Of a stretch of 64,000 bases of DNA, positions 18,517-61,959 are shown one piece after another. The translations under genes were made by a program, and so were the position numbers. The stretch is from Dehalococcoidia bacterium (lineage in GTDB: Bacteria > Chloroflexota > Dehalococcoidia > Lucifugimonadales > CATOSD01): positions 3,510,032-3,574,031 of the forward strand of contig CBDHFB010000016.1 in NCBI GenBank assembly GCA_965262385.1. The letters run 5' to 3'. Position 1 is the stretch's first letter; every line of letters starts with the position of its first letter. The notes under the pieces are model-generated. The model was not told the DNA's origin. It searched no databases and worked only from the letters and a program-made list of their open reading frames with translations.

Positions 18517-18643
18517 CGACAGGTCCTCCGGCTCCCTCATACCCATCCCAACACGCAAGGGTCGTCTCCATCCGGGGACGGCCCTTCTTCTTTGCCCGCA
18601 AGCGGGCGCAATCCAAAGGCAACACAACATGAAGGAGGTCGTG

Positions 18644-19132: not shown

Positions 19133-19503
19133 CCGGAGACTGGCCCGGCGCTGGCGTAGCGCAAGCAACGGTTGACGACTCGTGAGGCAAACGGGGCGCT
19201 CCAGTGCCCTGCTTGGACCCTGGGGCGCCTCCTTCTTGCGGCTGCTTGCGCCCGCACGGGGGTCGCTGCCTCCTCCGCCCGCTCCCCTGCGGGCTTCCAT
19301 CCCTCTTCCCCCAACCCCACACGCATCGCACAGGTCTTCTCCCCGACTCCGGCCGGGGGTGTGACCTGTGCCCGATGCACGACGGAGCCTGCCCCGGACT
19401 TGATTCCGGGGGCTTGCCCCGCACACGGCCTTGCACAGAGGCCGCCCCGGACTTGAGTCCGGGATGCCGCCCGGCCATTCGCCACGGCAACAACGCCACC
19501 CAA

Positions 19504-19551
19504 GGAGACAGTCCCAACCATCGGGACACGGATTCGAGCGGGACTGTCTCC
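19504..19551. promoter_or_regulatory. Perfect 12-bp inverted repeat upstream of the 4xHTH gene
   Basis: ggagacagtccc (19504-19515) and gggactgtctcc (19540-19551), separated by a 24-nt spacer, ending 44 nt before ATG 19595. Confidence 0.5.
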
Positions 19552-19594
19552 GACAAGGGGGCGGTCCCGCTTCTTCATTACAGGAGGAAGCGAC

Positions 19595-20686: not shown

Positions 20687-20952
20687 GGCTCCGTGACGCA
20701 CCGCAATGATGGGCGGCTGCCTTGGAGCAGCCTGGGACGGCCCGCACCGGGCCGCATACGCGAGTCCCGCCGTGGGCGGGCCTTCGCACGTTCAAGCATT
20801 CGCCTGGGGGCGTTGCCGGAACCCGACCGCCCCCGCTGGGGCGGCGCAGTCCGTCTCCCGTCGCTCTCCGCCTTGCGGCGGCGACTGATGGAGACGTGCG
20901 TCCGGGTTCCGGCGTCGTCCTCTAACTACCACGAAAAGGAGGACGACACGAC

Positions 20953-23295: not shown

Positions 23296-23307
23296 ACCGC
23301 TAAGACA

Positions 23308-23345
23308 CAGGGGAGGCCATCGTTTGAATACGATAGCCTCCCCTG
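23308..23345 (+). terminator. Strong hairpin 13 nt after the helicase stop
   Basis: caggggaggc / gcctcccctg form a 10-bp stem, with an inner atcgt/acgat stem. A T-run (cctttttt) follows only ~20 nt later, so this is not a textbook intrinsic terminator. Confidence 0.45.
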
Positions 23346-23458
23346 CTCGTCCATGTATGCGGGCCTTTTTTGTTGCCCTTTTTCGACCGCGTATTGAATT
23401 CTTTCCGTGTTTACCATAGTCTAAGAAGTGAAAAAACCATCCTGAGGAGGGATTGACA

Positions 23459-24409: not shown

Positions 24410-27400
24410 ATGATGTTCGCTAAACTGCACCGCCGGCAGCGAATCCTGTCGGCGATATGCGCCTTACTTTTGGCCTTCCTCACCTTGAGCAGCGCTACTG
24501 CGCAAGCGGCCAACAGCCAACCGGCGTTCCCGTCCAGCGAGGACGGCGCCCGATCGGTGGCCGAGAACACCACCGCCGGCGCAAACATCGGCGCGCCGGT
24601 TGGGGCCACGGACGCGGACAACGATGCGTTGACCTACACCCTGGGCGGCGACGATGCCGCGTCCTTCACTATTGTCCCCTCCACCGGCCAGTTGCAGACG
24701 CTGGCCGCCCTCAATTTTGAGGGCAAGAACTCCTACAGCGTAACGGTGTCGGCCAGCGACCGGAAGGATGCCACTGGCAACGCCGACACGGCCATCGACG
24801 CCACTATTGACGTGACCATCAGCGTAACCAACGTGGACGAGCCCGGAACGGTCATCCTGTCTCCCGCCCAGCCACGGGTCGGCGAGGTGCTCCGGGCCAG
24901 GGTGAGCGATCCGGACGGAGTTGTGGTTGGCTCAGGTATCTGGGGCTGGCTGAAGTCCAGGGACGGGACACCAGACTGGTCGACCGTTCAAAATAGTGCG
25001 CCTTACCCTAGCTCCTACGAAGTTCAAGCCGCCGACCTGAATTTCTACTTGCAGGCCACCGTGAGTTATGTGGACGGGCACGGACTCGGCAAGAGCGCGG
25101 TAGGTGTCTCCCAGCGTGTGGCTGCCAAAGCGGCGGCGCCGCAGATTCATGTGGAACAGCTGGTCTCCGGCCTGAGCATCCCCTGGGGAATCGCCTTTGC
25201 GCCCGACGGGACGATGCTGTTCACCGAACGCGCCCGCAAGCTGAGCGTCCGCCTCGCCGACGGAACGGTGCGGAATGTCACCGCTGACCTCAGTGATGTG
25301 ATGGTCGCATCAGAAATCGGGTTTATGGCGATAGTCGTCGATCCGGGCTTCGCCACCAACCGGCGGTTCTATACGTGCCAGGGCCATACCGGGGACAAGG
25401 TGCAGGTAATTGCCTGGACCATGAACGCCGGATATACGGAGGCCACCCGGGTCGCCGACCCCTTGGTCGATGGGATACCTGGCAGCAGTAGAAACCATTC
25501 CGGCAAGCATTCCGGCTGCCGGCTGCGCTTCGGGCCGGACGGCTATCTTTGGATTGCTACCGGGGATGCGACAACCGGATCGGCGCCCCAGAGCCTGACC
25601 AACCTTGGCGGCAAGGTGCTGCGGGTAGTTGCATCGACTGGCGCCGGGGCGCCGGGCAACCCATTCTCTGCCCCCAATTCGCCGCTGATTTACACCTACG
25701 GCCACCGCAACCCCCAGGGCCTGGCCCTGCGCCCCGGCAGCAGCGGCCAGATGTGGTCGGTGGAGCACGGCCCGGCCTTTGACGACGAGATCAATCTGTT
25801 GACCGCCGGCGGCAATTACGGCTGGGACCCGGCGCCCGGGTACAACGAGTCAACACCCATGACCGACCTGGAGAAATTCCCCAGCGCCATCGAGGCCAAG
25901 TGGGCCTCGGGGAACAAATCCCTGGCCGCCAGCGGCGGCATCTTCCTGGAGGGCGCCTGGTGGGGCCCGTGGGACGGCCGGCTGGCGGTGGCGTCCCTCA
26001 AGGACAAGACATTGCGCGTCCTTGAGTTCAGTCCGTCCGGCGACCTGTTGAGCGAGATCAGCGTCAGCAAACTCAAAAACGTCTATGGCCGACTCCGCAC
26101 CCCGATGATGGGGCCGGATGGCGCCCTGTATGTCTCCACCTCCGAGGACAACGGCGAGGACAAGATCCTGCTGGTCACTCCCCAGGTGGCTCCCCGGTTC
26201 CCAGTCAATACCGACACCACCTGGGATACGCCGGAGAACGCCGATATCACCACCATCGTCGCCACTGTTGCGGCCGAAGAGCCGAACGGCGAGGCGATCA
26301 CCTACTCCCTGGGCGGGACCGACGCCGCCTCCTTCAACATAAAAGATACTGCCGTCGGGGAATTGCGGGCCAACGCGCCCCTGGACTACGAGACCAAATC
26401 CTCGTACCAGGTCGATGTTATCGCCACCGACCCCAATAGCTTGAGCAGCAAAGTAACACTGACCATCACAGTAACCAACGAGGACGATGCGGGCGCGATA
26501 ACCCTGTCGTCCCAAGCACCCGTCGTTGGCATAGACCTGACGGCCAGTATCACCGACCCCGACGGGGGTGTTTCCAGCATAGGTTGGACCTGGAGTAAAT
26601 CCTCGGACCAAACTACGTGGACCGCTATTGCCGGCGCAACGTCGTCCACGTACCGACCGGTTGCCGCCGACGTTGGCAGCTACCTGCGAGCCACGGCGGC
26701 TTACACCGACAGCCAAGGATCGGGCAAGAATGCGCAACAGAAAACGGACGCCCCGGTTGCGGCGGCTCAGATCGGGGTGAGCGTGTCCGAGACCGCGCTG
26801 ACAGTCGCCGAGGGCGCCAGCGCCACCTACACCGTGGTCCTGGACGGCCAGCCCGCCTCCGATGTGGTAATCGAGGTGACCAGCAACAATTCCGACGTGA
26901 CGCTGGACACCGACGCGGCGGCGTCCGGCAACCAGACCACGCTGACCTTCACCCGGGCCAACTGGAGCACGGCGCAGACGGTGACGGTGGCCGCGGCCGA
27001 CGACGCCGACGCGGTGAACGACACGGCCTCCATCGCCCACGCGGTGGTGGCCGCCGAAAGCGCCGACGAGTACGACGCGGCGACCATCGCCGGGGTGGTG
27101 GTGACCGTGACCGACGACGACACCGCCGGGGTGACCGTGTCCGAAAGCACGCTGACGTTGGACGAGGGCGCCAGCGCCACCTACACGGTGGTCCTGGACG
27201 CTCAGCCCGCCGCCGCCGTGCTGATTCGCATTGACAACAACAACCAGGACGTGAAGGTGGACGCCAACGCGACGATACCAGGCCTCCAGCCCGGCATGTT
27301 CTTCACCCCGAGCAACTGGAACACGCCGCAGACGGTGATGGTGTCCGCCGCCCAGGACGCCGACGCGGTGGACGACAAAGCCCAGCTGAGCCACGCTGTA

Positions 27401-30400
27401 GACTATCGCGACAGGTCCGGCGGCCCGTACAGCCGCGTGGTCGCCGTCGGGGTGGCCGTGACCGTCACCGACGACGACACCGCCGGGGTGACGGTGTCCG
27501 AAACCACGCTGACGGTGACCGAGGGCGGCAGCGCCACCTACACGGTGGTCCTGGATGCCCAGCCCGCCGCCGACGTGCTGATTCGCATTGACCTCAACAA
27601 CCTGGACGTGGGGGTGGACGCCGATGCGGGTAGGGCAGGCGCCCAGGTCTTCATGCTCTTCACCCCGGGCAACTGGAACACGCCGCAGACGGTGAAGGTG
27701 TCCGCCGCCCAGGACGCCGACGCCGCGGACGACCAAGCCCAGCTGGGCCACGCGGTAAGCTATACGACCGACAGGTCCGGCCCGTACAACAGCGTGCTCG
27801 CCGCCGGGGTGGCCGTGACCGTCACCGACGACGAGACCGCCGGGGTGACGGTGTCCGAAACCACGCTGACAGTGGTCGAGGGCGCCAGCAACACCTACAC
27901 GGTGAAACTGGACCCCCAGCCCTCCTCCGACGTGGTGATCAGCGTCACCGCCAGCGGCAATACGGACGTGACCGTGTCTCCGGCGCGGCTGACCTTCACC
28001 TCGAGCAACTGGAGCACGGCGCAGACGGTGACGGTGTCCGCCGCCCACGACGCCGACGCGGTGAACGACACGGCCTCCATCGCCCACGCGGTGGTGGCCG
28101 CCGAAAGCGCCGACGAGTACGACACCGCGACCATCGCCGGGGTGGCGGTGACCGTCGCCGATGACGACGCGGGCGTGACAAACTCCGAATCCACGCTGGT
28201 GGTGGCCGAGGGCGGCAGCGCCACCTACACCGTGGCGCTGAGCACCCGGCCCTCCGCCGACGTGGCGATTATCATCGCCGACGACAACCCGGACGTGACG
28301 GCGGACACCGACGCCGCGACGTCCGGCAACCAGGACAGGCTGACCTTCACCCCGGCCAACTGGAGCACACCGCAGACGGTGACGGTGGCCGCCGCACACG
28401 ACGCCGACGCGGTGAACGACAAAGCCCAGCTGCGCTACACTGTGTCGTCCGGCAACGCGTCCGGCCCGTACAGCGGCTTGGCCGCCGACGGGGTGGCCGT
28501 GACCGTCACCGACGACGACGACGCCGGCGTGACGGTGTCCGAAACCACGCTGACCGTGGCCGAGGGCGGCAGCGCCACCTACACGGTGGTCCTGGACGCC
28601 CAGCCCACCTCCGACGTGGTGATCAACGTAACCAAGAGCGGCAGCTCCGACGTAACGGTGTCGCCGGCCACCCTGACCTTCACCGGGGACAACTGGGACA
28701 CGGCGCAGACGGTGACAGTGGCCGCCGCCCACGACGCCGACGCGGCGGACGACGCGGCGTCCATCACCCACGCGGTGGCGCCCGCCGAAAGCGCCGACGA
28801 GTACGACACCGCGACCATCGCCGGGGTGGCGGTGACCGTCGACGACGACGAGACCGCCGGGGTGACGGTGTCCAGGCCCAGGATGAGGATGGACGAGGGC
28901 GGCAGCAACACCTACACCGTGGCGCTGAACGCCCAGCCCGCCTCCGACGTGGTGATCGCGGTGACCAGCAACAATTCCGACGTGACGGTGGACACCGACG
29001 CGGCGACGTCCGGCAGCCAGAACACGCTGACCTTCACCCCGAGCAACTGGAGCACGGCGCAGACGGTGACGGTGGCCGCGGACCAGGACGCCGACGCGGC
29101 GAACGACAAGGCCGCCATCACCCACGCGGTGGTGGCCGCCCAAAGCGCCGACGAGTACGACAGCGTGACCATCGCCCGGGTGAGGGTGACCGTCGTCGAC
29201 GACGAAATCGGCACCGCCGGGGTGAGAAGCTCCGTGTCCAGGCTGTCGGTGGCCGAGGGCGGCAGCGCAACCTACACCGTGGTCCTGGACGCGCAGCCCG
29301 AGGCGAGGGTGAGGGTCTGGATTTTTCTCATCTCCGACGGGAACGTGTCACGGACGCCGAGTCGGCTGGAATTCACGCCGTCCAACTGGAGCACGGCGCA
29401 GACGGTGACGTTGTCCGCCGCCCAGGACGCCGACACGAGGATCAGCGCGGCCCAGATCTCCTACTTTATATCGTGCGCCAGCAGATGCAGACCGTACAAC
29501 AACAACACGACATACAGCAACGTGGTGGAGGTGATCGTCGTCGACGACGAAGTTGTAGGGGTAACGCTGCCCGAAACCACGCTGACGGTGCTCGAGGGTG
29601 GCAACCGCACCTACACCGTGGTGCTGAACAGGCAGCCCACCTCCGACGTGGTGATCAACGTCACCAAAAGCGGCAGTGACGACCTGACGGCGACTCCGGC
29701 CAGCCTGACCTTCACCACGAGCAACTGGAGCACGCCGCAGACGGTGACGGTGCGGGCCGCCCAGGACGCCGACGCAGCGAACGACACGGCGTCCATCACC
29801 CACGCGGTGGTGGCCTCCCGGAGCGCCGACGAGTACGACGCCGTGAGCATCGCCGGGGTGGCCGTGACCGTCACCGACGACGAGACCGCCGGGGTGACGG
29901 TGTCCGAAACCACGCTGACGGTGGCCGAGGGCGGCAGCGGCGCCTACACCGTGGTCTTGGACGTGCAGCCCACCTCCGACGTGGTAATCAACGTAACCAA
30001 AAGCGGCAGTGACGACGTAACGGTGTCTCCGGCCACCCTGACCTTCACGACGGCCAACTGGAGCACGGCGCAGACGGTGACGGTGGCTGCCGCCCAGGAC
30101 GCCGACGCGGTGAACGACGCGGCCTCCATCGCCCACGCCGTCGACGCCTCCCGGAGCGCCAACGAGTACGACAACATGACCATCGCCGGGGTGGCCGTGA
30201 CCGTCACCGACGACGACACCGCCGGGGTGAGCGTGTCCGAGACCACGCTGACGGTGGACGAGGGCGGCCGCGGCTCCTACACGGTGAGGCTGAACACGCA
30301 GCCCACCTCCAACGTGGTGATCAGCGTCACCAAGACCGGTAGTACCGACGTGACGGTGTCGCCGGCCACCCTGACCTTCACGACGAGCAACTGGAGCACG

Positions 30401-36400: not shown

Positions 36401-39400
36401 AGGCTGAACACGCAGCCCACCTCCAACGTGGTGATCAGCGTCACCAGGACCGGCAGTACCGACGTGACGCTGGACACCGACACGGGGACGTCCGGCAACC
36501 AGACCACGCTGACCTTCACGACGGCCAACTGGAGCACGGCGCAGACGGTGACGGTGGCTGCCGCCCAGGACGCCGACGCGGTGAACGACGCGGCCTCCAT
36601 CGCCCACGCCGTCGACGCCGCCCGCAGCGCCAACGAGTACGACAACGTGATGATCGCCTCGTTTGCCGTGACCGTCACCGACGACGATACCGCCGGGGTG
36701 ACGGTGTCCGAAACCACGCTGACGGTGGACGAGGGCGGCAGCGGCTCCTACACGGTGAGGCTGAACACGCAGCCCGCCTCCGACGTGGTGATCAACGTCA
36801 CCCGCAGCGGCAGCGCCGACGTGACGGCGTCTCCGGCCACCCTGACCTTCACTCCGGGCAACTGGAACACGGCGCAGACGGTAAGGGTGGCCGCGGCGCA
36901 GGACGACGACGCGGTGAACGACACGGCCTCCATCGCCCACGCCGTCGACGCCTCCCGCAGCGCCAACGAGTACGACGCCGTGAGCATCGCCGGGGTGGCC
37001 GTGACCGTCACCGACGACGATACCGCCGGGGTGAGCGTGTCCGAAACCGCGCTGACGGTTGCCGAGGGCGGCAGCGCAACCTACACCGTGGTCCTGGACG
37101 CCCAGCCCACCTCCGACGTGGTGATCGGCGTCACCAAGACCGGCAGTACCGACGTGACAGTGTCTCCGGCCACCCTGACCTTCACCACGAGCAACTGGAG
37201 CACGGCGCAGACGGTGACGGTGGCTGCCGCCCAGGACGCCGACGCGGTGGACGACGCGGCCGCCATCTCCCACGCCGTCGACGCCTCCCGCAGCGCCAAC
37301 GAGTACGACGCCGTGACCATCGCCGGGGTGGCGGTGACCGTCACCGACGACGACACCGCCGGGGTGACGGTGTCCGCGTCGTCGCTGACGGTGGCTGAGG
37401 GCGGCAGCGCAACCTACACGGTGGTGCTGAACCTTCAACCCACCTCCGACGTGGTGATCAACGTAACCAAAAGCGGCAGCAGCGACCTGACGGCGACTCC
37501 GGCCAGCCTGACCTTCACCACGAGCAACTGGAGCACGCCGCAGACGGTGACGGTGCGGGCCGCCCAGGACGCCGACGCGGTGGACGACGCGGCGTCCATC
37601 ACCCACGCGGTGGTGGCCTCCCGGAGCGCCAACGAGTACGACGCCGTGAGCATCGCCGGGGTGGCCGTGACCGTCACCGACGACGAGACCGCCGGGGTGA
37701 CGGTGTCCGAAACCACGCTGACGGTGGCCGAGGGCGGCAGCGGCGCCTACACCGTGGTCCTGGACGCCCAGCCCACCTCCGACGTGGTAATCAACGTCAC
37801 CCGCAGCGGCAGTACCGACGTAACGGTGTCTCCGGCCACCCTGACCTTCACCACGAGCAACTGGAGCACGGCGCAGACGGTGACGGTGGCTGCCGCCCAG
37901 GACGCCGACGCGGTGGACGACGCGGCCTCCATCTCCCACGCCGTCGACGCCTCCCGCAGCGCCAACGAGTACGACAACGTGAGCATCGCCGGGGTGGCCG
38001 TGACCGTCACCGACGACGAGACCGCCGGGGTGACGGTGTCCGAAACCACGCTGACGGTTGCCGAGGGCGGCAGCGCAACCTACACGGTGGTCCTGGACGC
38101 CCAGCCCACCTCCGACGTGGTAATCAACGTCACCCGCAGCGGCAGTACCGACGTGACGGTGTCTCCGGCCACCCTGACCTTCACCACGAGCAACTGGAGC
38201 ACGGCGCAGACGGTGACGGTGGCTGCCGCCCAGGACGCCGACGCGGTGGACGACGCGGCGTCCATCACCCACGCGGTGGTGGCCTCCCGGAGCGCCGACG
38301 AGTTCGACGCCGTGAACATCGCCGGGGTGGCGGTGACCGTCACCGACGACGAGACCGCCGGGGTGAGCGTGTCCGAAACCGCGCTGACGGTTGCCGAGGG
38401 CGGTAGCGGCTCCTACACGGTGAGGCTGAACACGCAGCCCACCTCCAACGTGGTGATCAGCGTCACCAGGACCGGCAGTACCGACGTGACGCTGGACACC
38501 GACACGGGGACGTCCGGCAACCAGACCACGCTGACCTTCACGACGGCCAACTGGAGCACGGCGCAGACGGTGACGGTGGCTGCCGCCCAGGACGCCGACG
38601 CGGTGAACGACGCGGCCTCCATCGCCCACGCCGTCGACGCCGCCCGCAGCGCCAACGAGTACGACAACGTGATGATCGCCTCGTTTGCCGTGACCGTCAC
38701 CGACGACGATACCGCCGGGGTGACGGTGTCCGAAACCACGCTGACGGTGGACGAGGGCGGCAGCGGCTCCTACACGGTGAGGCTGAACACGCAGCCCGCC
38801 TCCGACGTGGTGATCAACGTCACCCGCAGCGGCAGCGCCGACGTGACGGCGTCTCCGGCCACCCTGACCTTCACTCCGGGCAACTGGAACACGGCGCAGA
38901 CGGTAAGGGTGGCCGCGGCGCAGGACGACGACGCGGTGAACGACACGGCCTCCATCGCCCACGCCGTCGACGCCTCCCGCAGCGCCAACGAGTACGACGC
39001 CGTGAGCATCGCCGGGGTGGCCGTGACCGTCACCGACGACGATACCGCCGGGGTGAGCGTGTCCGAAACCGCGCTGACGGTTGCCGAGGGCGGCAGCGCA
39101 ACCTACACCGTGGTCCTGGACGCCCAGCCCACCTCCGACGTGGTGATCGGCGTCACCAAGACCGGCAGTACCGACGTGACAGTGTCTCCGGCCACCCTGA
39201 CCTTCACCACGAGCAACTGGAGCACGGCGCAGACGGTGACGGTGGCTGCCGCCCAGGACGCCGACGCGGTGGACGACGCGGCCGCCATCTCCCACGCCGT
39301 CGACGCCTCCCGCAGCGCCAACGAGTACGACGCCGTGACCATCGCCGGGGTGGCGGTGACCGTCACCGACGACGACACCGCCGGGGTGACGGTGTCCGCG

Positions 39401-42400
39401 TCGTCGCTGACGGTGGCTGAGGGCGGCAGCGCAACCTACACGGTGGTGCTGAACCTTCAACCCACCTCCGACGTGGTGATCAACGTAACCAAAAGCGGCA
39501 GCAGCGACCTGACGGCGACTCCGGCCAGCCTGACCTTCACCACGAGCAACTGGAGCACGCCGCAGACGGTGACGGTGCGGGCCGCCCAGGACGCCGACGC
39601 GGTGGACGACGCGGCGTCCATCACCCACGCGGTGGTGGCCTCCCGGAGCGCCAACGAGTACGACGCCGTGAGCATCGCCGGGGTGGCCGTGACCGTCACC
39701 GACGACGAGACCGCCGGGGTGACGGTGTCCGAAACCACGCTGACGGTGGCCGAGGGCGGCAGCGGCGCCTACACCGTGGTCCTGGACGCCCAGCCCACCT
39801 CCGACGTGGTAATCAACGTCACCCGCAGCGGCAGTACCGACGTAACGGTGTCTCCGGCCACCCTGACCTTCACCACGAGCAACTGGAGCACGGCGCAGAC
39901 GGTGACGGTGGCTGCCGCCCAGGACGCCGACGCGGTGGACGACGCGGCCTCCATCTCCCACGCCGTCGACGCCTCCCGCAGCGCCAACGAGTTCGACGCC
40001 GTGAGCATCGCCGGGGTGGCCGTGACCGTCACCGACGACGAGACCGCCGGGGTGACGGTGTCCGAAACCGCGCTGACGGTTGCCGAGGGCGGTAGCGGCT
40101 CCTACACGGTGAGGCTGAACACGCAGCCCACCTCCAACGTGGTGATCAGCGTCACCAGGACCGGCAGTACCGACGTGACGCTGGACACCGACACGGGGAC
40201 GTCCGGCAACCAGACCACGCTGACCTTCACGACGGCCAACTGGAGCACGGCGCAGACGGTGACGGTGGCTGCCGCCCAGGACGCCGACGCGGTGGACGAC
40301 GCGGCGTCCATCGCCCACGCCGTCGACGCCGCCCGCAGCGCCAACGAGTACGACAACGTGATGATCGCCTCGTTTGCGGTGACCGTCACCGACGACGAGA
40401 CCGCCGGGGTGACGGTGTCCGAAACCACGCTGACGGTTGCCGAGGGCGGCAGCGCAACCTACACGGTGGTGCTGAACCTTCAACCCACCTCCGACGTGGT
40501 GATCAACGTAACCAAAAGCGGCAGCAGCGACCTGACGGCGACTCCGGCCAGCCTGACCTTCACCACGAGCAACTGGAGCACGCCGCAGACGGTGACGGTG
40601 CGGGCCGCCCAGGACGCCGACGCGGTGGACGACGCGGCGTCCATCACCCACGCGGTGGTGGCCTCCCGGAGCGCCAACGAGTACGACGCCGTGAGCATCG
40701 CCGGGGTGGCGGTGACCGTCACCGACGACGAGACCGCCGGGGTGACGGTGTCCGAAACCACGCTGACGGTGGCCGAGGGCGGCAGCGGCGCCTACACCGT
40801 GGTCCTGGACGTGCAGCCCACCTCCGACGTGGTGATCAACGTAACCAAAAGCGGCAGTACCGACGTAACGGTGTCTCCGGCCACCCTGACCTTCACCACG
40901 AGCAACTGGAGCACGGCGCAGACGGTGACGGTGGCTGCCGCCCAGGACGCCGACGCGGTGGACGACGCGGCCTCCATCTCCCACGCCGTCGACGCCTCCC
41001 GCAGCGCCAACGAGTACGACAACGTGAGCATCGCCGGGGTGGCCGTGACCGTCACCGACGACGAGACCGCCGGGGTGACGGTGTCCGAAACCACGCTGAC
41101 GGTTGCCGAGGGCGGCAGCGCAACCTACACGGTGAAGCTGAACCTTCAGCCCACCTCCGACGTGGTGATCAACGTCACCCGCAGCGGCAGCGCCGACGTG
41201 ACGGCGTCTCCGGCCACCCTGACCTTCACTCCGGGCAACTGGAGCACGGCGCAGACGGTAAGGGTGGCCGCGGCGCAGGACGACGACGCGGTGAACGACA
41301 CGGCCTCCATCGCCCACGCGGTGGTGGCCGCCCAGAGCGCCAACGAGTATGACGGCGTTACCGTCGCCGGCGTGACGGTAACCGTCACTGACGACGACAC
41401 GCCGCCGCCCACCGGAGGCGGGAGTCCGCCCACTGGAGGTGGGGGTCCGCCCGACCGGAGTCCGACGTTCGCCTCGCGGACGGTAGACGACCAGGTCTAC
41501 ACAGTAGGCGAAGACGTAGGGACGGTGAGCCTGCCCCCCGCTCTTGGGGGCGACGGCAGGCTGCAATACAGCTTGTCGCCAGACCTGCCCGAGGGGCTGC
41601 GCTTCAACTCGGACCGCACCATCACCGGCACGCCCGGGGCGACGTTCACCAGGACGCGGTTCACCTATACCGCGACCGATTCCGACGGTGACCGTGTTCA
41701 CCTGCGCTTCTATATCACCGTGAGCGAGAGGCCGGGGGTGAGCGTGTCAGCCCCCACGGTGACGGTGACCGAGGGCGGCAGCGGAACCTACACGGTGAAG
41801 CTGAACCTTCAGCCCACCTCCGACGTGGTGATCAACGTCACCCGCAGCGGCAGCGCCGACGTGACGGCGTCTCCGGCCACCCTGACCTTCACTCCGGGCA
41901 ACTGGAGCACGGCGCAGACGGTAAGGGTGGCCGCGGCGCAGGACGACGACGCGGTGAACGACACGGCCTCCATCGCCCACGCGGTGGTGGCCGCCCAGAG
42001 CGCCAACGAGTATGACGGCGTTACCGTCGCCGGCGTGACGGTAACCGTCACTGACGACGACACGCCGCCGCCCACCGGAGGCGGGAGTCCGCCCACTGGA
42101 GGTGGGGGTCCGCCCGACCGGAGTCCGACGTTCGCCTCGCGGACGGTAGACGACCAGGTCTACACAGTAGGCGAAGACGTAGGGACGGTGAGCCTGCCCC
42201 CCGCTCTTGGGGGCGACGGCAGGCTGCAATACAGCTTGTCGCCAGACCTGCCCGAGGGGCTGCGCTTCAACTCGGACCGCACCATCACCGGCACGCCCGG
42301 GGCGACGTTCACCAGGACGCGGTTCACCTATACCGCGACCGATTCCGACGGTGACCGTGTTCACCTGCGCTTCTATATCACCGTGAGCGAGAGGCCGGGG

Positions 42401-44197
42401 GTGAGCGTGTCAGCCCCCACGGTGACGGTGACCGAGGGCGGCAGCGGAACCTACACGGTGAAGCTGAACCTTCAGCCCACCTCCGACGTGGTGATCAACG
42501 TCACCAAAAGCGGCAGCAGCGACGTGACGGTGTCTCCGGCGCGGCTGACCTTCACGACGGCCAACTGGAGCACGGCGCAGACGGTGACGGTGGCTGCCGC
42601 CCAGGACGCCGACGCGGTGGACGACGCGGCGTCCATCACCCACGCGGTGGTGGCCTCCCGGAGCGCCGACGAGTTCGACGCCGTGAACATCGCCGGGGTG
42701 GCGGTGGCCGTGACCGACGACGAGACCGCCGGGGTGAGCGTGTCCGAAACCGCGCTGACGGTGGCCGAGGGCGGCAGCGCAACCTACACCGTGGTGCTGA
42801 ACCTTCAGCCCACCTCCGACGTGGTAATCAACGTCACCAAAAGCGGCAGCAGCGACGTGACGGTGTCTCCGGCGCGGCTGACCTTCACGACGGCCAACTG
42901 GAGCACGGCGCAGACGGTGACGGTGGCTGCCGCCCAGGACGCCGACGCGGTGAACGACGCGGCCTCCATCGCCCACGCCGTCGACGCCGCCCGCAGCGCC
43001 AACGAGTACGACAACGTGAGCATCGCCGGGGTGGCCGTGACCGTCACCGACGACGAGACCGCCGGGGTGACGGTGTCCGCGGCCACGCTGACGGTTGCCG
43101 AGGGCGGCAGCGCAACCTACACGGTGGTGCTGAACCTTCAACCCACCTCCGACGTGGTGATCAACGTCACCCGCAGCGGCAGCTCCGACGTGACGGCGTC
43201 TCCGGCCACCCTGACCTTCACTCCGGGCAACTGGAACACGGCGCAGACGGTAAGGGTGCGGGCGGCCCAGGACGCCGACGCGGCGAACGACGCGGCCGCC
43301 ATCGCCCACGCGGTGGTGGCCGCCCAGAGCGCCAACGAGTATGACGGCGTTACCGTCGCCGGCGTGACGGTAACCGTCACTGACGACGACACGCCGCCGC
43401 CCACCGGAGGCGGGAGTCCGCCCACTGGAGGTGGGGGTCCGCCCGACCGGAGTCCGACGTTCGCCTCGCGGACGGTAGACGACCAGGTCTACACAGTAGG
43501 CGAAGACGTAGGGACGGTGAGCCTGCCCCCCGCTCTTGGGGGCGACGGCAGGCTGCAATACAGCTTGTCGCCAGACCTGCCCGAGGGGCTGCGCTTCAAC
43601 TCGGACCGCACCATCACCGGCACGCCCGGGGCGACGTTCACCAGGACGCGGTTCACCTATACCGCGACCGATTCCGACGGTGACCGTGTTCACCTGCGCT
43701 TCTATATCACCGTGAGCGAGAGGCCGGGGGTGAGCGTGTCAGCCCCCACGGTGACGGTGACCGAGGGCGGCAGCGGAACCTACACGGTGAAGCTGAACCT
43801 TCAGCCCACCTCCGACGTGGTGATCAACGTCACCCGCAGCGGCAGCGCCGACGTGACGGCGTCTCCGGCCACCCTGACCTTCACTCCGGGCAACTGGAGC
43901 ACGGCGCAGACGGTAAGGGTGGCCGCGGCGCAGGACGACGACGCGGTGAACGACACGGCCTCCATCGCCCACGCGGTGGTGGCCGCCCAGAGCGCCAACG
44001 AGTATGACGGCGTTACCGTCGCCGGCGTGACGGTAACCGTCACTGACGACGAAACCGCCGGGGTGACGGTGTCCCCCACAAACGTGACGGCGGACGAGGG
44101 CGGCAACATTCCCAGCGCATGGGTCTTGGCGCTGATAGGCGTGCTGCTCAACCTCGTGGCCATAGGCGTCGCCATAGGCATCCGGCGGCGGCACTAG
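24410..44197 (+). CDS. Giant secreted, C-terminally membrane-anchored repeat protein (6595 aa): cadherin-like domains + PQQ-sugar-dehydrogenase-type propeller + 48 tandem repeats + He_PIG-like modules
   Basis: Single uninterrupted 19,788-nt ORF. Signal-peptide-like MMFAKLHRRQRILSAICALLLAFLTLSSATAQA. Cadherin-like blocks (DADNDALTYTL...VTNVDEPG; EEPNGEAITYSL...VTNEDDAG). Propeller motifs (RLRFGPDGYLWIATGD, YGHRNPQGLA, GGNYGWDP). Repeat array. C-terminal hydrophobic helix plus RRRH. Confidence 0.9.
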   Translation: MMFAKLHRRQRILSAICALLLAFLTLSSATAQAANSQPAFPSSEDGARSVAENTTAGANIGAPVGATDADNDALTYTLGGDDAASFTIVPSTGQLQTLAALNFEGKNSYSVTVSASDRKDATGNADTAIDATIDVTISVTNVDEPGTVILSPAQPRVGEVLRARVSDPDGVVVGSGIWGWLKSRDGTPDWSTVQNSAPYPSSYEVQAADLNFYLQATVSYVDGHGLGKSAVGVSQRVAAKAAAPQIHVEQLVSGLSIPWGIAFAPDGTMLFTERARKLSVRLADGTVRNVTADLSDVMVASEIGFMAIVVDPGFATNRRFYTCQGHTGDKVQVIAWTMNAGYTEATRVADPLVDGIPGSSRNHSGKHSGCRLRFGPDGYLWIATGDATTGSAPQSLTNLGGKVLRVVASTGAGAPGNPFSAPNSPLIYTYGHRNPQGLALRPGSSGQMWSVEHGPAFDDEINLLTAGGNYGWDPAPGYNESTPMTDLEKFPSAIEAKWASGNKSLAASGGIFLEGAWWGPWDGRLAVASLKDKTLRVLEFSPSGDLLSEISVSKLKNVYGRLRTPMMGPDGALYVSTSEDNGEDKILLVTPQVAPRFPVNTDTTWDTPENADITTIVATVAAEEPNGEAITYSLGGTDAASFNIKDTAVGELRANAPLDYETKSSYQVDVIATDPNSLSSKVTLTITVTNEDDAGAITLSSQAPVVGIDLTASITDPDGGVSSIGWTWSKSSDQTTWTAIAGATSSTYRPVAADVGSYLRATAAYTDSQGSGKNAQQKTDAPVAAAQIGVSVSETALTVAEGASATYTVVLDGQPASDVVIEVTSNNSDVTLDTDAAASGNQTTLTFTRANWSTAQTVTVAAADDADAVNDTASIAHAVVAAESADEYDAATIAGVVVTVTDDDTAGVTVSESTLTLDEGASATYTVVLDAQPAAAVLIRIDNNNQDVKVDANATIPGLQPGMFFTPSNWNTPQTVMVSAAQDADAVDDKAQLSHAVDYRDRSGGPYSRVVAVGVAVTVTDDDTAGVTVSETTLTVTEGGSATYTVVLDAQPAADVLIRIDLNNLDVGVDADAGRAGAQVFMLFTPGNWNTPQTVKVSAAQDADAADDQAQLGHAVSYTTDRSGPYNSVLAAGVAVTVTDDETAGVTVSETTLTVVEGASNTYTVKLDPQPSSDVVISVTASGNTDVTVSPARLTFTSSNWSTAQTVTVSAAHDADAVNDTASIAHAVVAAESADEYDTATIAGVAVTVADDDAGVTNSESTLVVAEGGSATYTVALSTRPSADVAIIIADDNPDVTADTDAATSGNQDRLTFTPANWSTPQTVTVAAAHDADAVNDKAQLRYTVSSGNASGPYSGLAADGVAVTVTDDDDAGVTVSETTLTVAEGGSATYTVVLDAQPTSDVVINVTKSGSSDVTVSPATLTFTGDNWDTAQTVTVAAAHDADAADDAASITHAVAPAESADEYDTATIAGVAVTVDDDETAGVTVSRPRMRMDEGGSNTYTVALNAQPASDVVIAVTSNNSDVTVDTDAATSGSQNTLTFTPSNWSTAQTVTVAADQDADAANDKAAITHAVVAAQSADEYDSVTIARVRVTVVDDEIGTAGVRSSVSRLSVAEGGSATYTVVLDAQPEARVRVWIFLISDGNVSRTPSRLEFTPSNWSTAQTVTLSAAQDADTRISAAQISYFISCASRCRPYNNNTTYSNVVEVIVVDDEVVGVTLPETTLTVLEGGNRTYTVVLNRQPTSDVVINVTKSGSDDLTATPASLTFTTSNWSTPQTVTVRAAQDADAANDTASITHAVVASRSADEYDAVSIAGVAVTVTDDETAGVTVSETTLTVAEGGSGAYTVVLDVQPTSDVVINVTKSGSDDVTVSPATLTFTTANWSTAQTVTVAAAQDADAVNDAASIAHAVDASRSANEYDNMTIAGVAVTVTDDDTAGVSVSETTLTVDEGGRGSYTVRLNTQPTSNVVISVTKTGSTDVTVSPATLTFTTSNWSTAQTVTVAAAQDADAVNDAASITHAVVASRSADEFDAVNIAGVAVTVTDDETAGVTVSKSTLTVAEGGSGAYTVVLDALPTSDVVISVTRTGSSDVTLDTDTGTSGNQTTLTFTPANWDTAQTVTVAAAQDADAVNDAASITHAVVASRSADEFDAVTIAGVAVTVTDDETAGVTVSKSTLTVDEGGSGSYTVRLNLQPASDVVISVTRTGSPDVTVSPATLTFTRANWSTAQTVRVSAAQDADAVNDAASIAHAVVAASSANEYDAVTIGSVAVTVTDNDAGATVSETTLTITEGNSSTYTVVLDAQPASDVVITVSSDNSDVTVSPATLTFTPSNWSTAKTVTVAAAQDADAVNDTAAIAHAVDAARSANEFDAVTIAGVAVAVTVTDDDTAGVTVSVISVTAPEGDSGAYTVVLDVQPSSDVVISVTKSGSPDVTVSPATLTFTPSNWDTAQTVTVRAAQDADAVDDAASISHAVVAARSANEFDLVTVAGVTVTVDDDDTAGVTVYPTSYNTFEDTANAYTVKLDAQPSSDVVIRVTSTGSSDVTVDTDRRTPGNQDTLTFTPSNWSTAQRVWVVSAADDDAVNDVASISHAVVAAESADEYDSVMIVSFAVTVTDDETAGVTVSETTLTVAEGGSATYTVVLDAQPASDVVIGVTKTGSSDVTLDTDTGTSGNQTTLTFTPSNWDTAQTVTVAAAQDADAVDGAASIAHAVDAARSANEYDNVTIAGVAVTVTDDDTAGVTVSASSVTVAEGGSATYTVVLNLQPTSDVVINVTKRGSPDVTVSPARLTFTTANWSTAQTVTVAAAQDADAVDDAAAIAHAVDAARSANEYDNVTIAGVAVTVTDDDTAGVSVSETTLTVDEGGRGSYTVRLNTQPTSDVVIGVTRSGSPDVTVSPATLTFSSSNWATAQTVTVAAAQDADAVNDTAAITHAVDASRSANEFDAVTIAGVTVTVDDDETAGVTVSETTLTVAEGGSGAYTVVLDVQPTSDVVINVTKSGSSDVTVSPATLTFTTANWSTAKTVTVAAAQDADAVNDAASIAHAVDAARSANEYDNMTIAGVAVTVTDDDTAGVSVSETTLTVDEGGRGSYTVRLNTQPTSNVVISVTKTGSTDVTVSPATLTFTTSNWSTAKTVTVAAAQDADAVNDAASISHAVDASRSADEFDAVNIAGVAVAVTDDETAGVSVSETTLTVDEGGRGSYTVRLNTQPTSNVVISVTKTGSTDVTVSPATLTFTTSNWSTAKTVTVAAAQDADAVNDAASITHAVVAASSANEFDLVTVAGVAVTVTDDETAGVTVSETTLTVAEGGSATYTVVLDAQPTSDVVINVTKSGSSDVTVSPARLTFTTANWSTAKTVTVAAAQDADAVDDAAAISHAVDASRSANEFDAVNIAGVAVAVTDDDTAGVSVSETALEVAEGGSGSYTVRLNTQPTSDVVIGVTRSGSPDVTVSPATLTFSSSNWATAQTVTVAAAQDADAVNDAAAISHAVDASRSADEFDAVNIAGVAVAVTDDETAGVTVSETALEVAEGGSGSYTVRLNTQPTSNVVISVTKTGSTDVTLDTDTGTSGNQTTLTFTPANWDTAQTVTVAAAQDADAVDDAAAISHAVDASRSANEFDAVNIAGVAVAVTDDETAGVSVSETALEVAEGGSGSYTVRLNTQPTSNVVISVTKTGSTDVTLDTDTGTSGNQTTLTFTTANWSTAQTVTVAAAQDADAVNDAASIAHAVDAARSANEYDNVMIASFAVTVTDDDTAGVTVSETTLTVDEGGSGSYTVRLNTQPASDVVINVTRSGSADVTASPATLTFTPGNWNTAQTVRVAAAQDDDAVNDTASIAHAVDASRSANEYDAVSIAGVAVTVTDDDTAGVSVSETALTVAEGGSATYTVVLDAQPTSDVVIGVTKTGSTDVTVSPATLTFTTSNWSTAQTVTVAAAQDADAVDDAASITHAVVASRSADEFDAVNIAGVAVAVTDDETAGVSVSETALTVAEGGSGSYTVRLNTQPTSNVVISVTRTGSTDVTLDTDTGTSGNQTTLTFTTANWSTAQTVTVAAAQDADAVNDAASIAHAVDAARSANEYDNVMIASFAVTVTDDDTAGVTVSETTLTVDEGGSGSYTVRLNTQPASDVVINVTRSGSADVTASPATLTFTPGNWNTAQTVRVAAAQDDDAVNDTASIAHAVDASRSANEYDAVSIAGVAVTVTDDDTAGVSVSETALTVAEGGSATYTVVLDAQPTSDVVIGVTKTGSTDVTVSPATLTFTTSNWSTAQTVTVAAAQDADAVDDAAAISHAVDASRSANEYDAVTIAGVAVTVTDDDTAGVTVSASSLTVAEGGSATYTVVLNLQPTSDVVINVTKSGSSDLTATPASLTFTTSNWSTPQTVTVRAAQDADAVDDAASITHAVVASRSANEYDAVSIAGVAVTVTDDETAGVTVSETTLTVAEGGSGAYTVVLDAQPTSDVVINVTRSGSTDVTVSPATLTFTTSNWSTAQTVTVAAAQDADAVDDAASISHAVDASRSANEYDNVSIAGVAVTVTDDETAGVTVSETTLTVAEGGSATYTVVLDAQPTSDVVINVTRSGSTDVTVSPATLTFTTSNWSTAQTVTVAAAQDADAVDDAASITHAVVASRSADEFDAVNIAGVAVTVTDDETAGVSVSETALTVAEGGSGSYTVRLNTQPTSNVVISVTRTGSTDVTLDTDTGTSGNQTTLTFTTANWSTAQTVTVAAAQDADAVNDAASIAHAVDAARSANEYDNVMIASFAVTVTDDDTAGVTVSETTLTVDEGGSGSYTVRLNTQPASDVVINVTRSGSADVTASPATLTFTPGNWNTAQTVRVAAAQDDDAVNDTASIAHAVDASRSANEYDAVSIAGVAVTVTDDDTAGVSVSETALTVAEGGSATYTVVLDAQPTSDVVIGVTKTGSTDVTVSPATLTFTTSNWSTAQTVTVAAAQDADAVDDAAAISHAVDASRSANEYDAVTIAGVAVTVTDDDTAGVTVSASSLTVAEGGSATYTVVLNLQPTSDVVINVTKSGSSDLTATPASLTFTTSNWSTPQTVTVRAAQDADAVDDAASITHAVVASRSANEYDAVSIAGVAVTVTDDETAGVTVSETTLTVAEGGSGAYTVVLDAQPTSDVVINVTRSGSTDVTVSPATLTFTTSNWSTAQTVTVAAAQDADAVDDAASISHAVDASRSANEFDAVSIAGVAVTVTDDETAGVTVSETALTVAEGGSGSYTVRLNTQPTSNVVISVTRTGSTDVTLDTDTGTSGNQTTLTFTTANWSTAQTVTVAAAQDADAVDDAASIAHAVDAARSANEYDNVMIASFAVTVTDDETAGVTVSETTLTVAEGGSATYTVVLNLQPTSDVVINVTKSGSSDLTATPASLTFTTSNWSTPQTVTVRAAQDADAVDDAASITHAVVASRSANEYDAVSIAGVAVTVTDDETAGVTVSETTLTVAEGGSGAYTVVLDVQPTSDVVINVTKSGSTDVTVSPATLTFTTSNWSTAQTVTVAAAQDADAVDDAASISHAVDASRSANEYDNVSIAGVAVTVTDDETAGVTVSETTLTVAEGGSATYTVKLNLQPTSDVVINVTRSGSADVTASPATLTFTPGNWSTAQTVRVAAAQDDDAVNDTASIAHAVVAAQSANEYDGVTVAGVTVTVTDDDTPPPTGGGSPPTGGGGPPDRSPTFASRTVDDQVYTVGEDVGTVSLPPALGGDGRLQYSLSPDLPEGLRFNSDRTITGTPGATFTRTRFTYTATDSDGDRVHLRFYITVSERPGVSVSAPTVTVTEGGSGTYTVKLNLQPTSDVVINVTRSGSADVTASPATLTFTPGNWSTAQTVRVAAAQDDDAVNDTASIAHAVVAAQSANEYDGVTVAGVTVTVTDDDTPPPTGGGSPPTGGGGPPDRSPTFASRTVDDQVYTVGEDVGTVSLPPALGGDGRLQYSLSPDLPEGLRFNSDRTITGTPGATFTRTRFTYTATDSDGDRVHLRFYITVSERPGVSVSAPTVTVTEGGSGTYTVKLNLQPTSDVVINVTKSGSSDVTVSPARLTFTTANWSTAQTVTVAAAQDADAVDDAASITHAVVASRSADEFDAVNIAGVAVAVTDDETAGVSVSETALTVAEGGSATYTVVLNLQPTSDVVINVTKSGSSDVTVSPARLTFTTANWSTAQTVTVAAAQDADAVNDAASIAHAVDAARSANEYDNVSIAGVAVTVTDDETAGVTVSAATLTVAEGGSATYTVVLNLQPTSDVVINVTRSGSSDVTASPATLTFTPGNWNTAQTVRVRAAQDADAANDAAAIAHAVVAAQSANEYDGVTVAGVTVTVTDDDTPPPTGGGSPPTGGGGPPDRSPTFASRTVDDQVYTVGEDVGTVSLPPALGGDGRLQYSLSPDLPEGLRFNSDRTITGTPGATFTRTRFTYTATDSDGDRVHLRFYITVSERPGVSVSAPTVTVTEGGSGTYTVKLNLQPTSDVVINVTRSGSADVTASPATLTFTPGNWSTAQTVRVAAAQDDDAVNDTASIAHAVVAAQSANEYDGVTVAGVTVTVTDDETAGVTVSPTNVTADEGGNIPSAWVLALIGVLLNLVAIGVAIGIRRRH
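25138..26185 (+). other. PQQ-dependent sugar (glucose/sorbosone) dehydrogenase-type beta-propeller domain inside the giant ORF
   Basis: LVSGLSIPWGIAFAPDG, HSGCRLRFGPDGYLWIATGD, LIYTYGHRNPQGLALRP, MWSVEHGPAFDDEINLLTAGGNYGWDP. Confidence 0.7.
41402..41734 (+). other. Pro/Gly linker + He_PIG (putative Ig / dystroglycan-type cadherin-like) module 1
   Basis: PPPTGGGSPPTGGGGPPDRSPTF followed by ...YTVGEDVGTVSLPPALGGDGRLQYSLSPDLPEGLRFNSDRTITGTPGATFTRTRFTYTATDSDGDRVHLRFYITV. Confidence 0.6.
42065..42397 (+). other. He_PIG-like module 2
   Basis: Same peptide as module 1, offset by 663 bp. Confidence 0.6.
43394..43726 (+). other. He_PIG-like module 3
   Basis: Same peptide as module 1, offset by 1329 bp from module 2. 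Confidence 0.6.
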
Positions 44198-44828: not shown

Positions 44829-45395
44829 GTGGCGCTATCGGCAACGCGGGTGAAGGCTCTCAGAGACCCAGGGCGATACTCCGACGGCGGTGGCCTGCAT
44901 CTCTTCATAAGCAAAGCAGGAACCAAATCCTGGGTTCAGCGCATCACAATCGACGGGCGCAGGCGGGATATCGGCCTGGGCGGATCTCCTACGGTGAGCC
45001 TTGCCCAGGCCCGCAGCAAGGCTGCCGACAATCGGACCGCCGTTGCCGAGGGCCGAGACCCTTTCGACGAAAAGCACGCCCCGGCGATGCCGACCTTCAG
45101 GGAAGCTGCCCACCATGTCCACGAGGCGAACAGGCCCCGTTGGCGCAGCGGTAAGCACGTCGCGAACTGGATGCAGACCCTGGAGCGCCACGCCATGCCG
45201 ACCCTGGGCAGCATGCCCCTGGACAGGATGGACAGGTCCGCCATGCTGCGAGTTCTGACCCCGATCTGGACCAACCGTTTCGAGCGTCGCCGTGCACTGA
45301 TGCAGCTGTGGGCGGACTACGTCACCGGCCTGCCTGTGGGTGTGCCGGAGCAGGAGAACCTCATCGAAGGCTCAGTTCAGCCGGTCGGCGTTTAG
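44829..45395 (+). pseudogene. P4-type tyrosine integrase with the catalytic domain deleted
   Basis: N-terminal DUF4102/arm-binding pattern LSATRVKALRDPGRYSDGGGLHLFISKAGTKSWVQRITIDGRRRDIGLG, then ...VLTPIWTN joined directly to ERRRALMQLWADYV. That last segment looks like the extreme C-terminus of this integrase family. Confidence 0.65.
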
Positions 45396-58086: not shown

Positions 58087-58202
58087 GATCTTGTGTGTGG
58101 GCGTATCAGAACCTGCGACTGGGCGCCGCCGTGGAGCGAGCGTGAACCGAGCTCGGGGAGCAGCCATAGCCGGTCCCTCTCTGGCAGCGCTTGCCACCCC
58201 CC

Positions 58203-61955: not shown

Positions 61956-61959
61956 ACGA

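Follow-up and report, generated by a model that had tools for sequence, protein, structure and literature searches.

A predicted giant surface protein of a sponge-associated Dehalococcoidia, with a PQQ sugar dehydrogenase-type propeller on a long stalk of Calx-beta-like repeats

The giant RTX adhesins, such as LapA from Pseudomonas, MpIBP from Marinomonas primoryensis and SiiE, are proteins of hundreds of kDa to several MDa in which tens of tandem extender domains, beta-sandwiches of around 100 aa with acidic joints of the Ca2+-binding type, carry ligand-binding modules at the far end; their C-terminus contains the signal for the type I secretion system (T1SS). A different arrangement occurs in Ebh from Staphylococcus aureus, which has a signal peptide, a long tandem array of helical FIVAR/GA repeats forming a rod-like ectodomain, and a C-terminal membrane segment with a positively charged tail, without an LPXTG motif. 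Here we describe a gene of 19.8 kb (positions 24410..44197, + strand) contained in a stretch of 64,000 nt, hereafter the window (contig CBDHFB010000016.1, positions 3,510,032–3,574,031, assembly GCA_965262385.1), from a sponge-associated Dehalococcoidia metagenome-assembled genome (MAG). The locus is a real and intact gene for a giant adhesin-like surface protein, which constitutes a further example of an established class; the families of its two modules are large, although unnamed and unstudied. The explanation that best accounts for the data, and that we consider reasonably probable, is that the gene encodes a giant cell-surface fibre that would be exported by the Sec pathway, tethered by a transmembrane helix and tipped with a beta-propeller.

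The predicted protein shares with the RTX adhesins its size, the tandem array of acidic beta-sandwich units and the location of specialised modules at the far end, and its repeat units show a weak similarity to the LapA domain from Pfam. However, it starts with a Sec-type signal peptide, the RTX nonapeptide GGxGxDxUx does not occur anywhere in the protein, and HemolysinCabind gave no match in its tail. Its polarity is also the opposite, with an N-terminal head and a C-terminal transmembrane helix as putative anchor, and the host is presumably a monoderm. Among the annotated ORFs, which are a part of those in the window (flanks of about 13.3–24 kb and 44.8–46.8 kb plus several more distant ORFs), there were no genes for a T1SS, sortase, exosortase or rhombosortase, nor pqq genes. 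By analogy, then, the protein appears to resemble functionally the Ca2+-stiffened giant adhesins without the RTX repeats, T1SS signal and T1SS genes that define them, and its topology seems closer to that of Ebh-type proteins anchored by a transmembrane segment. It differs from Ebh in the type of repeat, in the possession of an enzyme-like head and of cadherin domains, and shows no detectable sequence relationship to it. Likewise, GhpA from Aureispira (PDB 9FLY and 9FLP), which was retrieved by Foldseek with the model of the head, is a giant Ig-like surface fibre of more than 5000 aa with a specialised distal end, but the matches comprise only generic Ig/cadherin-like segments (TM score 0.13–0.15) and both proteins differ in organism, export system and role, which is prey capture for GhpA.

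The gene is a single ORF with an ATG start, no internal stop codons upon translation and a stop codon at 44195–44197. The deduced product has 6595 aa, a mass of 667 kDa and a pI of 4.05, with Thr, Ala, Val, Ser and Asp together accounting for 64% of the sequence. The GC content is 0.61, 0.542, and 0.916 for codon positions 1, 2, and 3, respectively, all the Pfam domain matches are in the frame of the giant ORF, and two AlphaFold (AF2) models derived from it, one for the head and one for two stalk units, were both confident; for these reasons, we conclude that this frame is truly coding. The repeat array also contains antisense ORFs, the longest of 2486 aa, which are by-products of GC-rich repeats; therefore, ORF length alone is no proof of coding. 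A Kyte-Doolittle scan detected only two hydrophobic segments in the product, at aa 11–31 and aa 6567–6592. A first-pass annotation made from the sequence alone had described an unbroken ORF of this same size in a region of broken genes, whose product would run from a Sec-type signal peptide, through two cadherin plus Ig-like pairs bordering a propeller of the pyrroloquinoline quinone (PQQ) sugar dehydrogenase type and 48 tandem repeats of about 111 aa with acidic DD(D/E) boundaries, to three He_PIG-like modules and one C-terminal transmembrane helix; it also saw in this a membrane-anchored stalk, formally like the giant T1SS adhesins yet relying on a Sec signal and a C-terminal anchor. Our results agree with this architecture except for the placement of the He_PIG modules, which is treated below.

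The signal peptide (24410..24508, + strand; aa 1–33), as deduced from the sequence and the hydropathy scan, has a basic n-region, a hydrophobic core at aa 11–31 and a cleavage-type site between AQA and AN, and a TAT-signal model gave no match in the giant protein at E ≤ 1. It is followed by a first cadherin domain (24527..24838, + strand; about aa 40–143), identified with Pfam, PDB sequence matches to CELSR1 and cadherin-23 that span aa 33–127, and the AF2 model. The second cadherin domain (26228..26476, + strand; aa 607–689) lies beyond the propeller, yielded the best of the two stretches matching PF00028 (78.9 bits in total, for a cut-off of 28.8) and also matched protocadherin and cadherin-23 structures. 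Each of the cadherin domains precedes a beta-sandwich with the motif DPDG...W.W...Y, which we designate Ig-like units 1 (24839..25129, + strand; about aa 144–240) and 2 (26492..26770, + strand; about aa 695–787). The first is all-beta in the AF2 model of the head, and the second is modelled as a beta-sandwich and has a weak SCAB-Ig match at aa 722–787. In close relatives, the Ig-like unit carries a precomputed annotation as PF28399 (Ig_CLSTN), which is marked as faint.

The region between both pairs (25172..26158, + strand; aa 255–583) matched the GSDH family (PF07995) along positions 1–329 of the 332 in the profile, with E 6.3e-68 and 229.9 bits over a cut-off of 25. Sequence comparisons with the PDB retrieved 2ISM (2e-44), 3A9G, 7CDY, 2G8S, 3DAS and the sGDH structure 1C9U (4e-19). 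The AF2 model of the head, with a pLDDT of 89, contains a six-bladed beta-propeller that Foldseek superposed on 3A9G, 2ISM, 3DAS and 2G8S with TMt values of 0.83–0.88 and root-mean-square deviations of 2.4–3.8 Å. The propeller contains the motifs HSGCR, GHRNPQG, EHGP..DDEINL..GGNYGW and GRLR, and residues H367 (in HSGCR), R433, N434, R561, and R563, which we take to correspond to H144, R228, N229, R406, and R408 of sGDH; on this mapping, the catalytic-type His and the residues of the PQQ/Ca2+ site are all present. In an alignment with 43 relatives, R433, N434, R561, and R563 were invariant, and H367 was kept in 34. As judged from these comparisons, the domain is probably a typical soluble PQQ-dependent aldose/sugar dehydrogenase domain, and it looks catalytically competent. 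Described enzymes of this type, such as E. coli YliI/Asd (2G8S), Thermus thermophilus TTHA0570 (2ISM) and those from P. aerophilum (3A9G) and S. coelicolor (3DAS), likewise have a full-length GSDH domain and the cofactor-site motifs, but they are free proteins of about 350 aa, periplasmic or secreted, whereas in the window protein it lies between two cadherin plus Ig-like pairs, within a fibre of more than 6 kaa of which it would form the tip.

The strongest competitor of a fibre with an enzymatic tip is that the propeller, like that of the eukaryotic HHIP, has no catalytic activity and serves for binding, and that the protein is purely an adhesin or receptor. HHIP structures were also found by Foldseek, with TMt values of about 0.6, the propeller has adhesion-type cadherin domains on both flanks, and the catalytic-type His is absent from nine of the 43 relatives, so that some family members may have a propeller that only binds. 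However, the protein from the window conserves this His and every PQQ/Ca2+ residue that could be mapped, the Arg and Asn positions do not vary among the relatives, and the propeller is closest in structure to true PQQ sugar dehydrogenases (27–32% identity), HHIP being more distant (15–17%). We therefore consider a silent propeller rather unlikely for this protein, and favour a tip that would be able to use PQQ.

The stalk starts with 43 consecutive repeat units (26771..41401, + strand; aa 788–5664) and, in all, we could delimit exactly 48 complete units, of which 31 have 111 aa, 10 have 119 aa due to a LDTDTGTSGNQTT-type insertion, and the remaining ones have 110–120 aa. There are 43 distinct sequences among these 48 units and, at the DNA level, those of 111 aa are 79–100% identical to one another. 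Units 1–21 are more divergent and their order is conserved between genomes, with later units being homogenised and including multi-unit duplications. In a comparison of 27 units, E14, D71, D73, and D108 were invariant and D77 and D109 were conserved in at least 90% of them; the invariance of D108 and the conservation of D109 show that the acidic DD(D/E) boundaries are real. Unit 8 (29216–29554, aa 1603–1715) is strongly degenerate (47% identical to the consensus) and lacks the usual acidic loop; two of the five cysteines of the protein are located in it (CASRC), and it may act as a hinge or have decayed.

Attempts to classify directly one single unit with Pfam, NCBIfam or PDB sequences failed, because matches were below threshold or were not found. 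Among the 27 units, fn3_6 was retrieved in 17 (best E 1.6e-5) and LapA in 14, always under the Pfam thresholds, and Calx-beta (PF03160) was found in none of them at E ≤ 1. Likewise, NCBIfam gave nothing relevant for a stretch of three units, and a PDB sequence search with the profile of the 27 units gave no solved structure with an E value better than 0.16. Neither the copy of Pfam searched nor the newer Pfam annotations of the database matches revealed a dedicated family for this unit, in consonance with the first-pass annotation, which could not assign it to a named family and guessed Calx-beta or Ig-like features. The modelling it proposed for a short stretch of repeats and for the head gave, for two units, an all-beta structure with a pLDDT of 97.2 and a pTM of 0.81, and thus the stalk unit is confidently predicted to fold as a beta-sandwich. 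Using this model, Foldseek retrieved only generic sandwiches of the Ig-like, ASH, PapD-like and single-chain antibody (scFv) types, including Hydin and the SPD-2 domain of CEP192, with an identity of around 10% and TM scores lower than 0.5.

The Calx-beta guess received support from proteins that contain both types of domain. In P0222, P0226, and P0228 (P numbers designate related proteins from the database), units of the type found in the window alternate with bona fide Calx-beta domains, which score 62–98 bits in P0222 and P0228 and 28.8 bits in P0226. Additionally, a unit of the same type from P0133 was just above the Calx-beta cut-off, with 27.7 vs. 27 bits, over the full profile. An hhalign comparison of the 27 window units with a Calx-beta profile of only six sequences, all of them from related proteins, gave a probability of 96.2% and an E value of 2e-9 over 101 of 111 columns. 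In this alignment, which spans the whole domain, the acidic positions are kept: the Glu of the AEGG motif is shared, QDADAxxD pairs with DSVDDD, and the terminal DDD with DDD. We presume that the conserved acidic positions of the unit are those of the Ca2+ ligands in canonical Calx-beta domains, as in the structure of CBD1 from NCX1. The window units differ from those of Calx-beta arrays in that, besides escaping PF03160, they do not contain the DY...G-x-L-x-F motif, having LTFT-x-x-NW-x-TAQTVTV in its place. Because of the hhalign match and the aligned acidic clusters, we conclude that the stalk unit is, by profile homology, a divergent Calx-beta-like domain that falls outside of PF03160 as defined by its hidden Markov model (HMM).

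The first-pass annotation was correct in the number of He_PIG modules, but not in placing them after all 48 repeats, because they are interleaved among the last five. The order of the C-terminal part is 43 repeats, He_PIG, one repeat, He_PIG, three repeats, He_PIG, one repeat, a partial unit and the transmembrane helix, and a PPPTGGGSPPTGGGGPP linker precedes each He_PIG module. All these elements are on the + strand: Pro/Gly linker and module 1 (41402..41731), unit 44 (41732..42064), linker and module 2 (42065..42394), units 45–47 (42395..43393), linker and module 3 (43394..43723), unit 48 (43724..44056), and a truncated 49th unit with the transmembrane helix and the final RRRH (44057..44194). 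The three stretches matching He_PIG (PF05345) add up to 65.8 bits, for a cut-off of 24, and a super-unit of 221 aa is evident from an exact repeat of 721 nt with an offset of 663 nt. The 49th unit stops after its first strand (...DEGG) and runs directly into the helix (aa 6567–6592, nt 44108–44185), and RRRH forms the end of the protein. Homologous tails are found in the relatives P0241 (...EGGSNISVWVLTLIGVLLNLVALGVAIGIWRRR), P0322 (...EGGSNISVWVLTLIGVLLNLVAIGVAIGIRRRH) and P0257 (...GGGVSAWVWALLSVLLILVALVAAVVLLRRLHLRRR...), which retain both the helix and the basic cluster. Since there are only two hydrophobic segments in the protein, and since this tail recurs in the three relatives, a Sec-exported and C-terminally anchored ectodomain would be the simplest reading of the topology.

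The helix could instead be part of a cleavable sorting signal (of the GPS-CTERM, GlyGly-CTERM or sortase-like types), so that the protein would be either released or handed over to a different anchor (cell wall, S-layer or lipid). The tail has indeed a tripartite look (short motif, transmembrane helix and basic cluster), with a weak match to GPS-CTERM (NF040681) from NCBIfam, and the tails from the relatives share GG...S(A/V)WV ahead of the helix. Nevertheless, the match is of 16.8–18.8 bits, below the cut-off of 28, and disappears in the tails of two relatives, where the signature residues are not conserved (IPS is replaced by NIS in P0322 and by GVS in P0257), while the GG corresponds to the conserved AEGG motif of the repeat itself. 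Moreover, a regular-expression search found no LPXTG motif in the giant protein, none of the flanking ORFs scanned encodes a sortase, exosortase or rhombosortase, and no further protein with the same tail was found in about 900 kb of related loci. We thus rejected the GPS-CTERM signal as a candidate, for which we did not find any papers in open-access text, and, because the sorting signature is not conserved and there are neither LPXTG nor RTX motifs, we prefer a plain stop-transfer anchor and deem a sorting signal of any of these types very unlikely.

A scan of the GTDB species representatives revealed 38 loci (L numbers) from other Dehalococcoidia, Tepidiformaceae, Candidatus Aldehydirespirator and Candidatus Poriferisodalis; the last two, which taxonomy places in Acidimicrobiia, phylum Actinomycetota, are sponge symbionts. 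One match from the protein searches was named Candidatus Poribacteria. The loci nearest to that of the window are from Dehalococcoidia MAGs. The 10 kb upstream of the gene are 98.5–99.9% identical to a contig from one of them (L003, CBDHDR010000001.1), to which the source of the window is therefore closely related. The head (24410–27109) displays 99.6–99.9% nucleotide identity in five species representatives (L002–L005 and L008) and 90–92% in three loci from Acidimicrobiia (L011, L012, and L014). However, the adjoining upstream helicase gene has only 87–89% identity in L004 and L008, and the region upstream in L002 shows no similarity to the window; nucleotide identity therefore jumps sharply between the head and its flank. 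Because of this discontinuity, the nucleotide comparisons indicate that the head was probably exchanged horizontally or converted recently, also across phyla.

Genomes contain two or three paralogues of the gene, including variants without the propeller (L036–L038), and at least 13 related ORFs exceed 4400 aa, running off the ends of their loci. The cadherin-GSDH-cadherin cassette also occurs in L015 and L016 (MAGs of Tepidiformaceae and Dehalococcoidia), in the middle of differently built proteins of around 4 kaa. These two proteins also carry subtilase and P-domain, spondin_N, fn3 and bacterial cadherin-like domains, and have a common C-terminal sequence (...GEWVSYILGAP...) with no transmembrane helix.

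The rarity implied by the first-pass annotation turned out to be overstated, since relatives of the head amount to at least 1,721 in the protein database at E ≤ 1e-10 and an exhaustive search with an HMM of the stalk unit retrieved 27,286 representative proteins at E ≤ 1e-3, many of them giant, and 6,993 at E ≤ 1e-30. The best 150 of these matches have 1.2–7.9 kaa and 11–67 units each. The 27,286 proteins matched by the profile show that the stalk module is a building block used widely in giant surface proteins, joined to whichever anchor suits the envelope. Among the top 150 proteins, 39 have F or W as their last residue, preceded by a C-terminal region of about 300 aa that is beta-barrel-like (e.g., P0245, P0247, P0249, P0253, and P0265; many proteins of this kind have 4–8 kaa), and the single example compared with NCBIfam did not match any family in this region. 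From its sequence, the region looks like an outer-membrane anchor of diderms, and may be an uncurated anchor domain. A few searches limited to open-access text did not find papers on the cadherin-GSDH fusion or on the giant family. 'Eukaryotic-like proteins' with cadherin, Calx-beta and fn3 domains are significantly enriched in sponge-symbiotic Actinobacteriota (PMC11706023), and the sponge Aggregation Factor is reported to be rich in Calx-beta domains (PMC11670116); Calx-beta arrays from both sources share the habitat of the window protein.

The assembly of the array deserves some caution, because it contains exact internal repeats of 1656 nt (with an offset of 2022 nt, corresponding to six units), 813, 754, and 721 nt. 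The longest can be resolved by long reads, but not by short reads. The genes from two independent assemblies (L003 and L005) are collinear with that from the window along the first 9.3 kb, approximately, which comprise the head and about 21 of the more divergent units, with 98–100% identity and either no indels or a shift of only 6 nt. Beyond this point, the order of units with respect to the window is a mosaic, which fits a real variation in copy number and arrangement in the homogenised distal half. Multi-unit blocks were duplicated recently, and we propose that the distal repeats grow and shrink by unequal recombination. In six of around 20 related loci (L001, L005, L006, L011, L035, and L036), the gene has frameshift-like ends, out of frame, Arg-rich and at differing positions, which reflect either pseudogenisation or consensus errors in repeated DNA; the copy in the window is one of the intact copies of the family. 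A decaying or mis-assembled array, open by chance in a GC-rich and junk-rich island and with no functional product, might be suspected from the abundance of insertion sequence (IS) elements and gene fragments in the region, the presumed frameshifts in relatives, the internal repeats, the distal differences between close relatives and the ease with which GC-rich repeats stay open in antisense, but is most improbable for a gene that is open for 19.8 kb in precisely the frame with all domain matches, has a GC3 of 0.916 and an intact signal peptide and transmembrane tail at opposite ends, maintains its first 9.3 kb in two other assemblies, and has units that model at a pLDDT of 97.

Returning to the tethered fibre, the protein would be exported through Sec with its N-terminus first and lose its signal peptide by cleavage, and the single C-terminal helix would keep it tethered with RRRH in the cytoplasm. 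Chloroflexota are regarded as monoderms, and no outer-membrane step would be needed. The stalk would consist of 48 Calx-beta-like and three He_PIG Ig-like domains, with a putative Ca2+ site per unit formed by the invariant Glu of the A–B region, the QDADAxxD cluster in the E–F loop and the C-terminal DD(D/E), and Ca2+ from seawater might stiffen the interdomain joints to produce an acidic rod. With about 55 domains of around 4 nm, this rod could reach approximately 0.2 µm and would hold at its distal end the head, in which the two cadherin plus Ig-like pairs flank the PQQ-type propeller with its cofactor and catalytic-type residues intact. Within the sponge mesohyl, such a 'eukaryotic-like' adhesin, whose tip would be an enzyme or a lectin, may serve for the Ca2+-dependent attachment to, or the processing of, nearby cells or the host matrix, which is rich in glycans. 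The gene is also evolutionarily mobile, with the head module being swapped between species and phyla.

Several considerations weigh against this explanation. As described, some relatives of the propeller do not have the catalytic-type His. Codon differences between units are synonymous in 34% of cases and, as this bias is only mild, selection on individual distal units may be weak. Binding of Ca2+ by the stalk units is predicted from homology and from Calx-beta structures, and the monoderm envelope is an assumption for this lineage. The count of 48 units and the arrangement of the distal half derive from this assembly only, and the presumed frameshifts in relatives suggest that the family decays easily. 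Finally, a Shine-Dalgarno sequence was not seen by eye upstream of the gene, nor a terminator in a scan of the region downstream, although both results are uninformative for this phylum.

The giant gene is surrounded by mobile DNA, an island with many IS elements and gene fragments, in line with the broken genes described in the first-pass annotation. There are two inverted IS-like pairs with 99–99.8% identity between copies, coding for ORFs of 357 aa and 493 aa: pair 1 (126–1447 and 3062–4383), which lies beside one copy of pair 2, and pair 2 (1525–3071 and 11690–13236). ORF translations suggested a split IS21-type transposase, and Pfam identified a transposase fragment reduced to its helix-turn-helix (HTH) just upstream of the giant gene; the island also includes a large serine recombinase and a ribbon-helix-helix protein. 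Immediately downstream of the giant gene there is a truncated tyrosine integrase (44829–45395, + strand), with only the arm-binding and central domains, possibly the eroded terminus of an integrative element. At the DNA level, it shares 81% identity with positions 63166–63606, adjoining an integrase-like ORF of 402 aa (61911–63119, − strand) situated 17 kb away.

Upstream of the gene are a multi-HTH regulator of the XRE type (19595–20686, + strand; Pfam, PHROG and NCBIfam) and a phage-type superfamily 2 DNA helicase (20953–23295, + strand; phrog_62, 2.8e-34). The HTH-helicase block (18411–23412) is present, with 85–97% nucleotide identity, in at least nine other loci, and is found beside the giant gene or its propeller-less paralogues in L004–L010, L036, and L038; the block may be part of a mobile unit or be functionally linked to the giant gene. 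In L015 and L016, the helicase gene is 77–79% identical and is located downstream, on the opposite strand. Farther downstream in the window there is a stand-alone protein of 1003 aa with adenylation, carrier and thioester-reductase domains (51201–54212, − strand), resembling nonribosomal peptide synthetases and with MxcG-like and carboxylic-acid-reductase-like matches below cut-off; its gene is flanked by ORFs read as IS elements and has a methyltransferase gene nearby (55580–56269). An RND/MMPL-type, HAE3-like transporter (58191–60725, + strand) is in a GC-richer segment close to the right end of the window. Besides these recombinase, regulator, helicase, integrase, synthetase-like, methyltransferase and transporter matches, other annotated ORFs were read as transposases, and scans of the window for tRNA genes and Rfam families were empty.

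As a bolder proposal, which we find quite unlikely, the locus might be one copy of a 'symbiosis fibre' cassette that circulates horizontally among unrelated sponge symbionts from Chloroflexota and Actinomycetota. The stalk would mimic, or dock onto, the Aggregation Factor and the matrix of the host in a Ca2+-dependent manner, the PQQ dehydrogenase, held about 0.2 µm away from the cell, would target glycans of the host, making the protein a stalked enzyme for host recognition or the evasion of phagocytosis instead of a generic adhesin, and the HTH-helicase block would be part of the moving vehicle.

Giant Ca2+-dependent repeat adhesins, as well as 'eukaryotic-like' proteins with cadherin and Calx-beta domains in sponge symbionts, are already established, and our results do not overturn current views. 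What deserves attention in this locus is the mobility of the head across phyla, the unnamed Calx-beta-like family of the stalk, and the putative enzyme tethered on a stalk. The identity of the head across species and phyla provides a clean example of the horizontal exchange of an adhesion module in a host-associated community, and thousands of giant genes would be better annotated if a family were defined for the stalk unit. If made, the protein would be among the largest bacterial surface proteins and a candidate for the attachment and recognition of uncultured Dehalococcoidia and Acidimicrobiia symbionts in sponge tissue.

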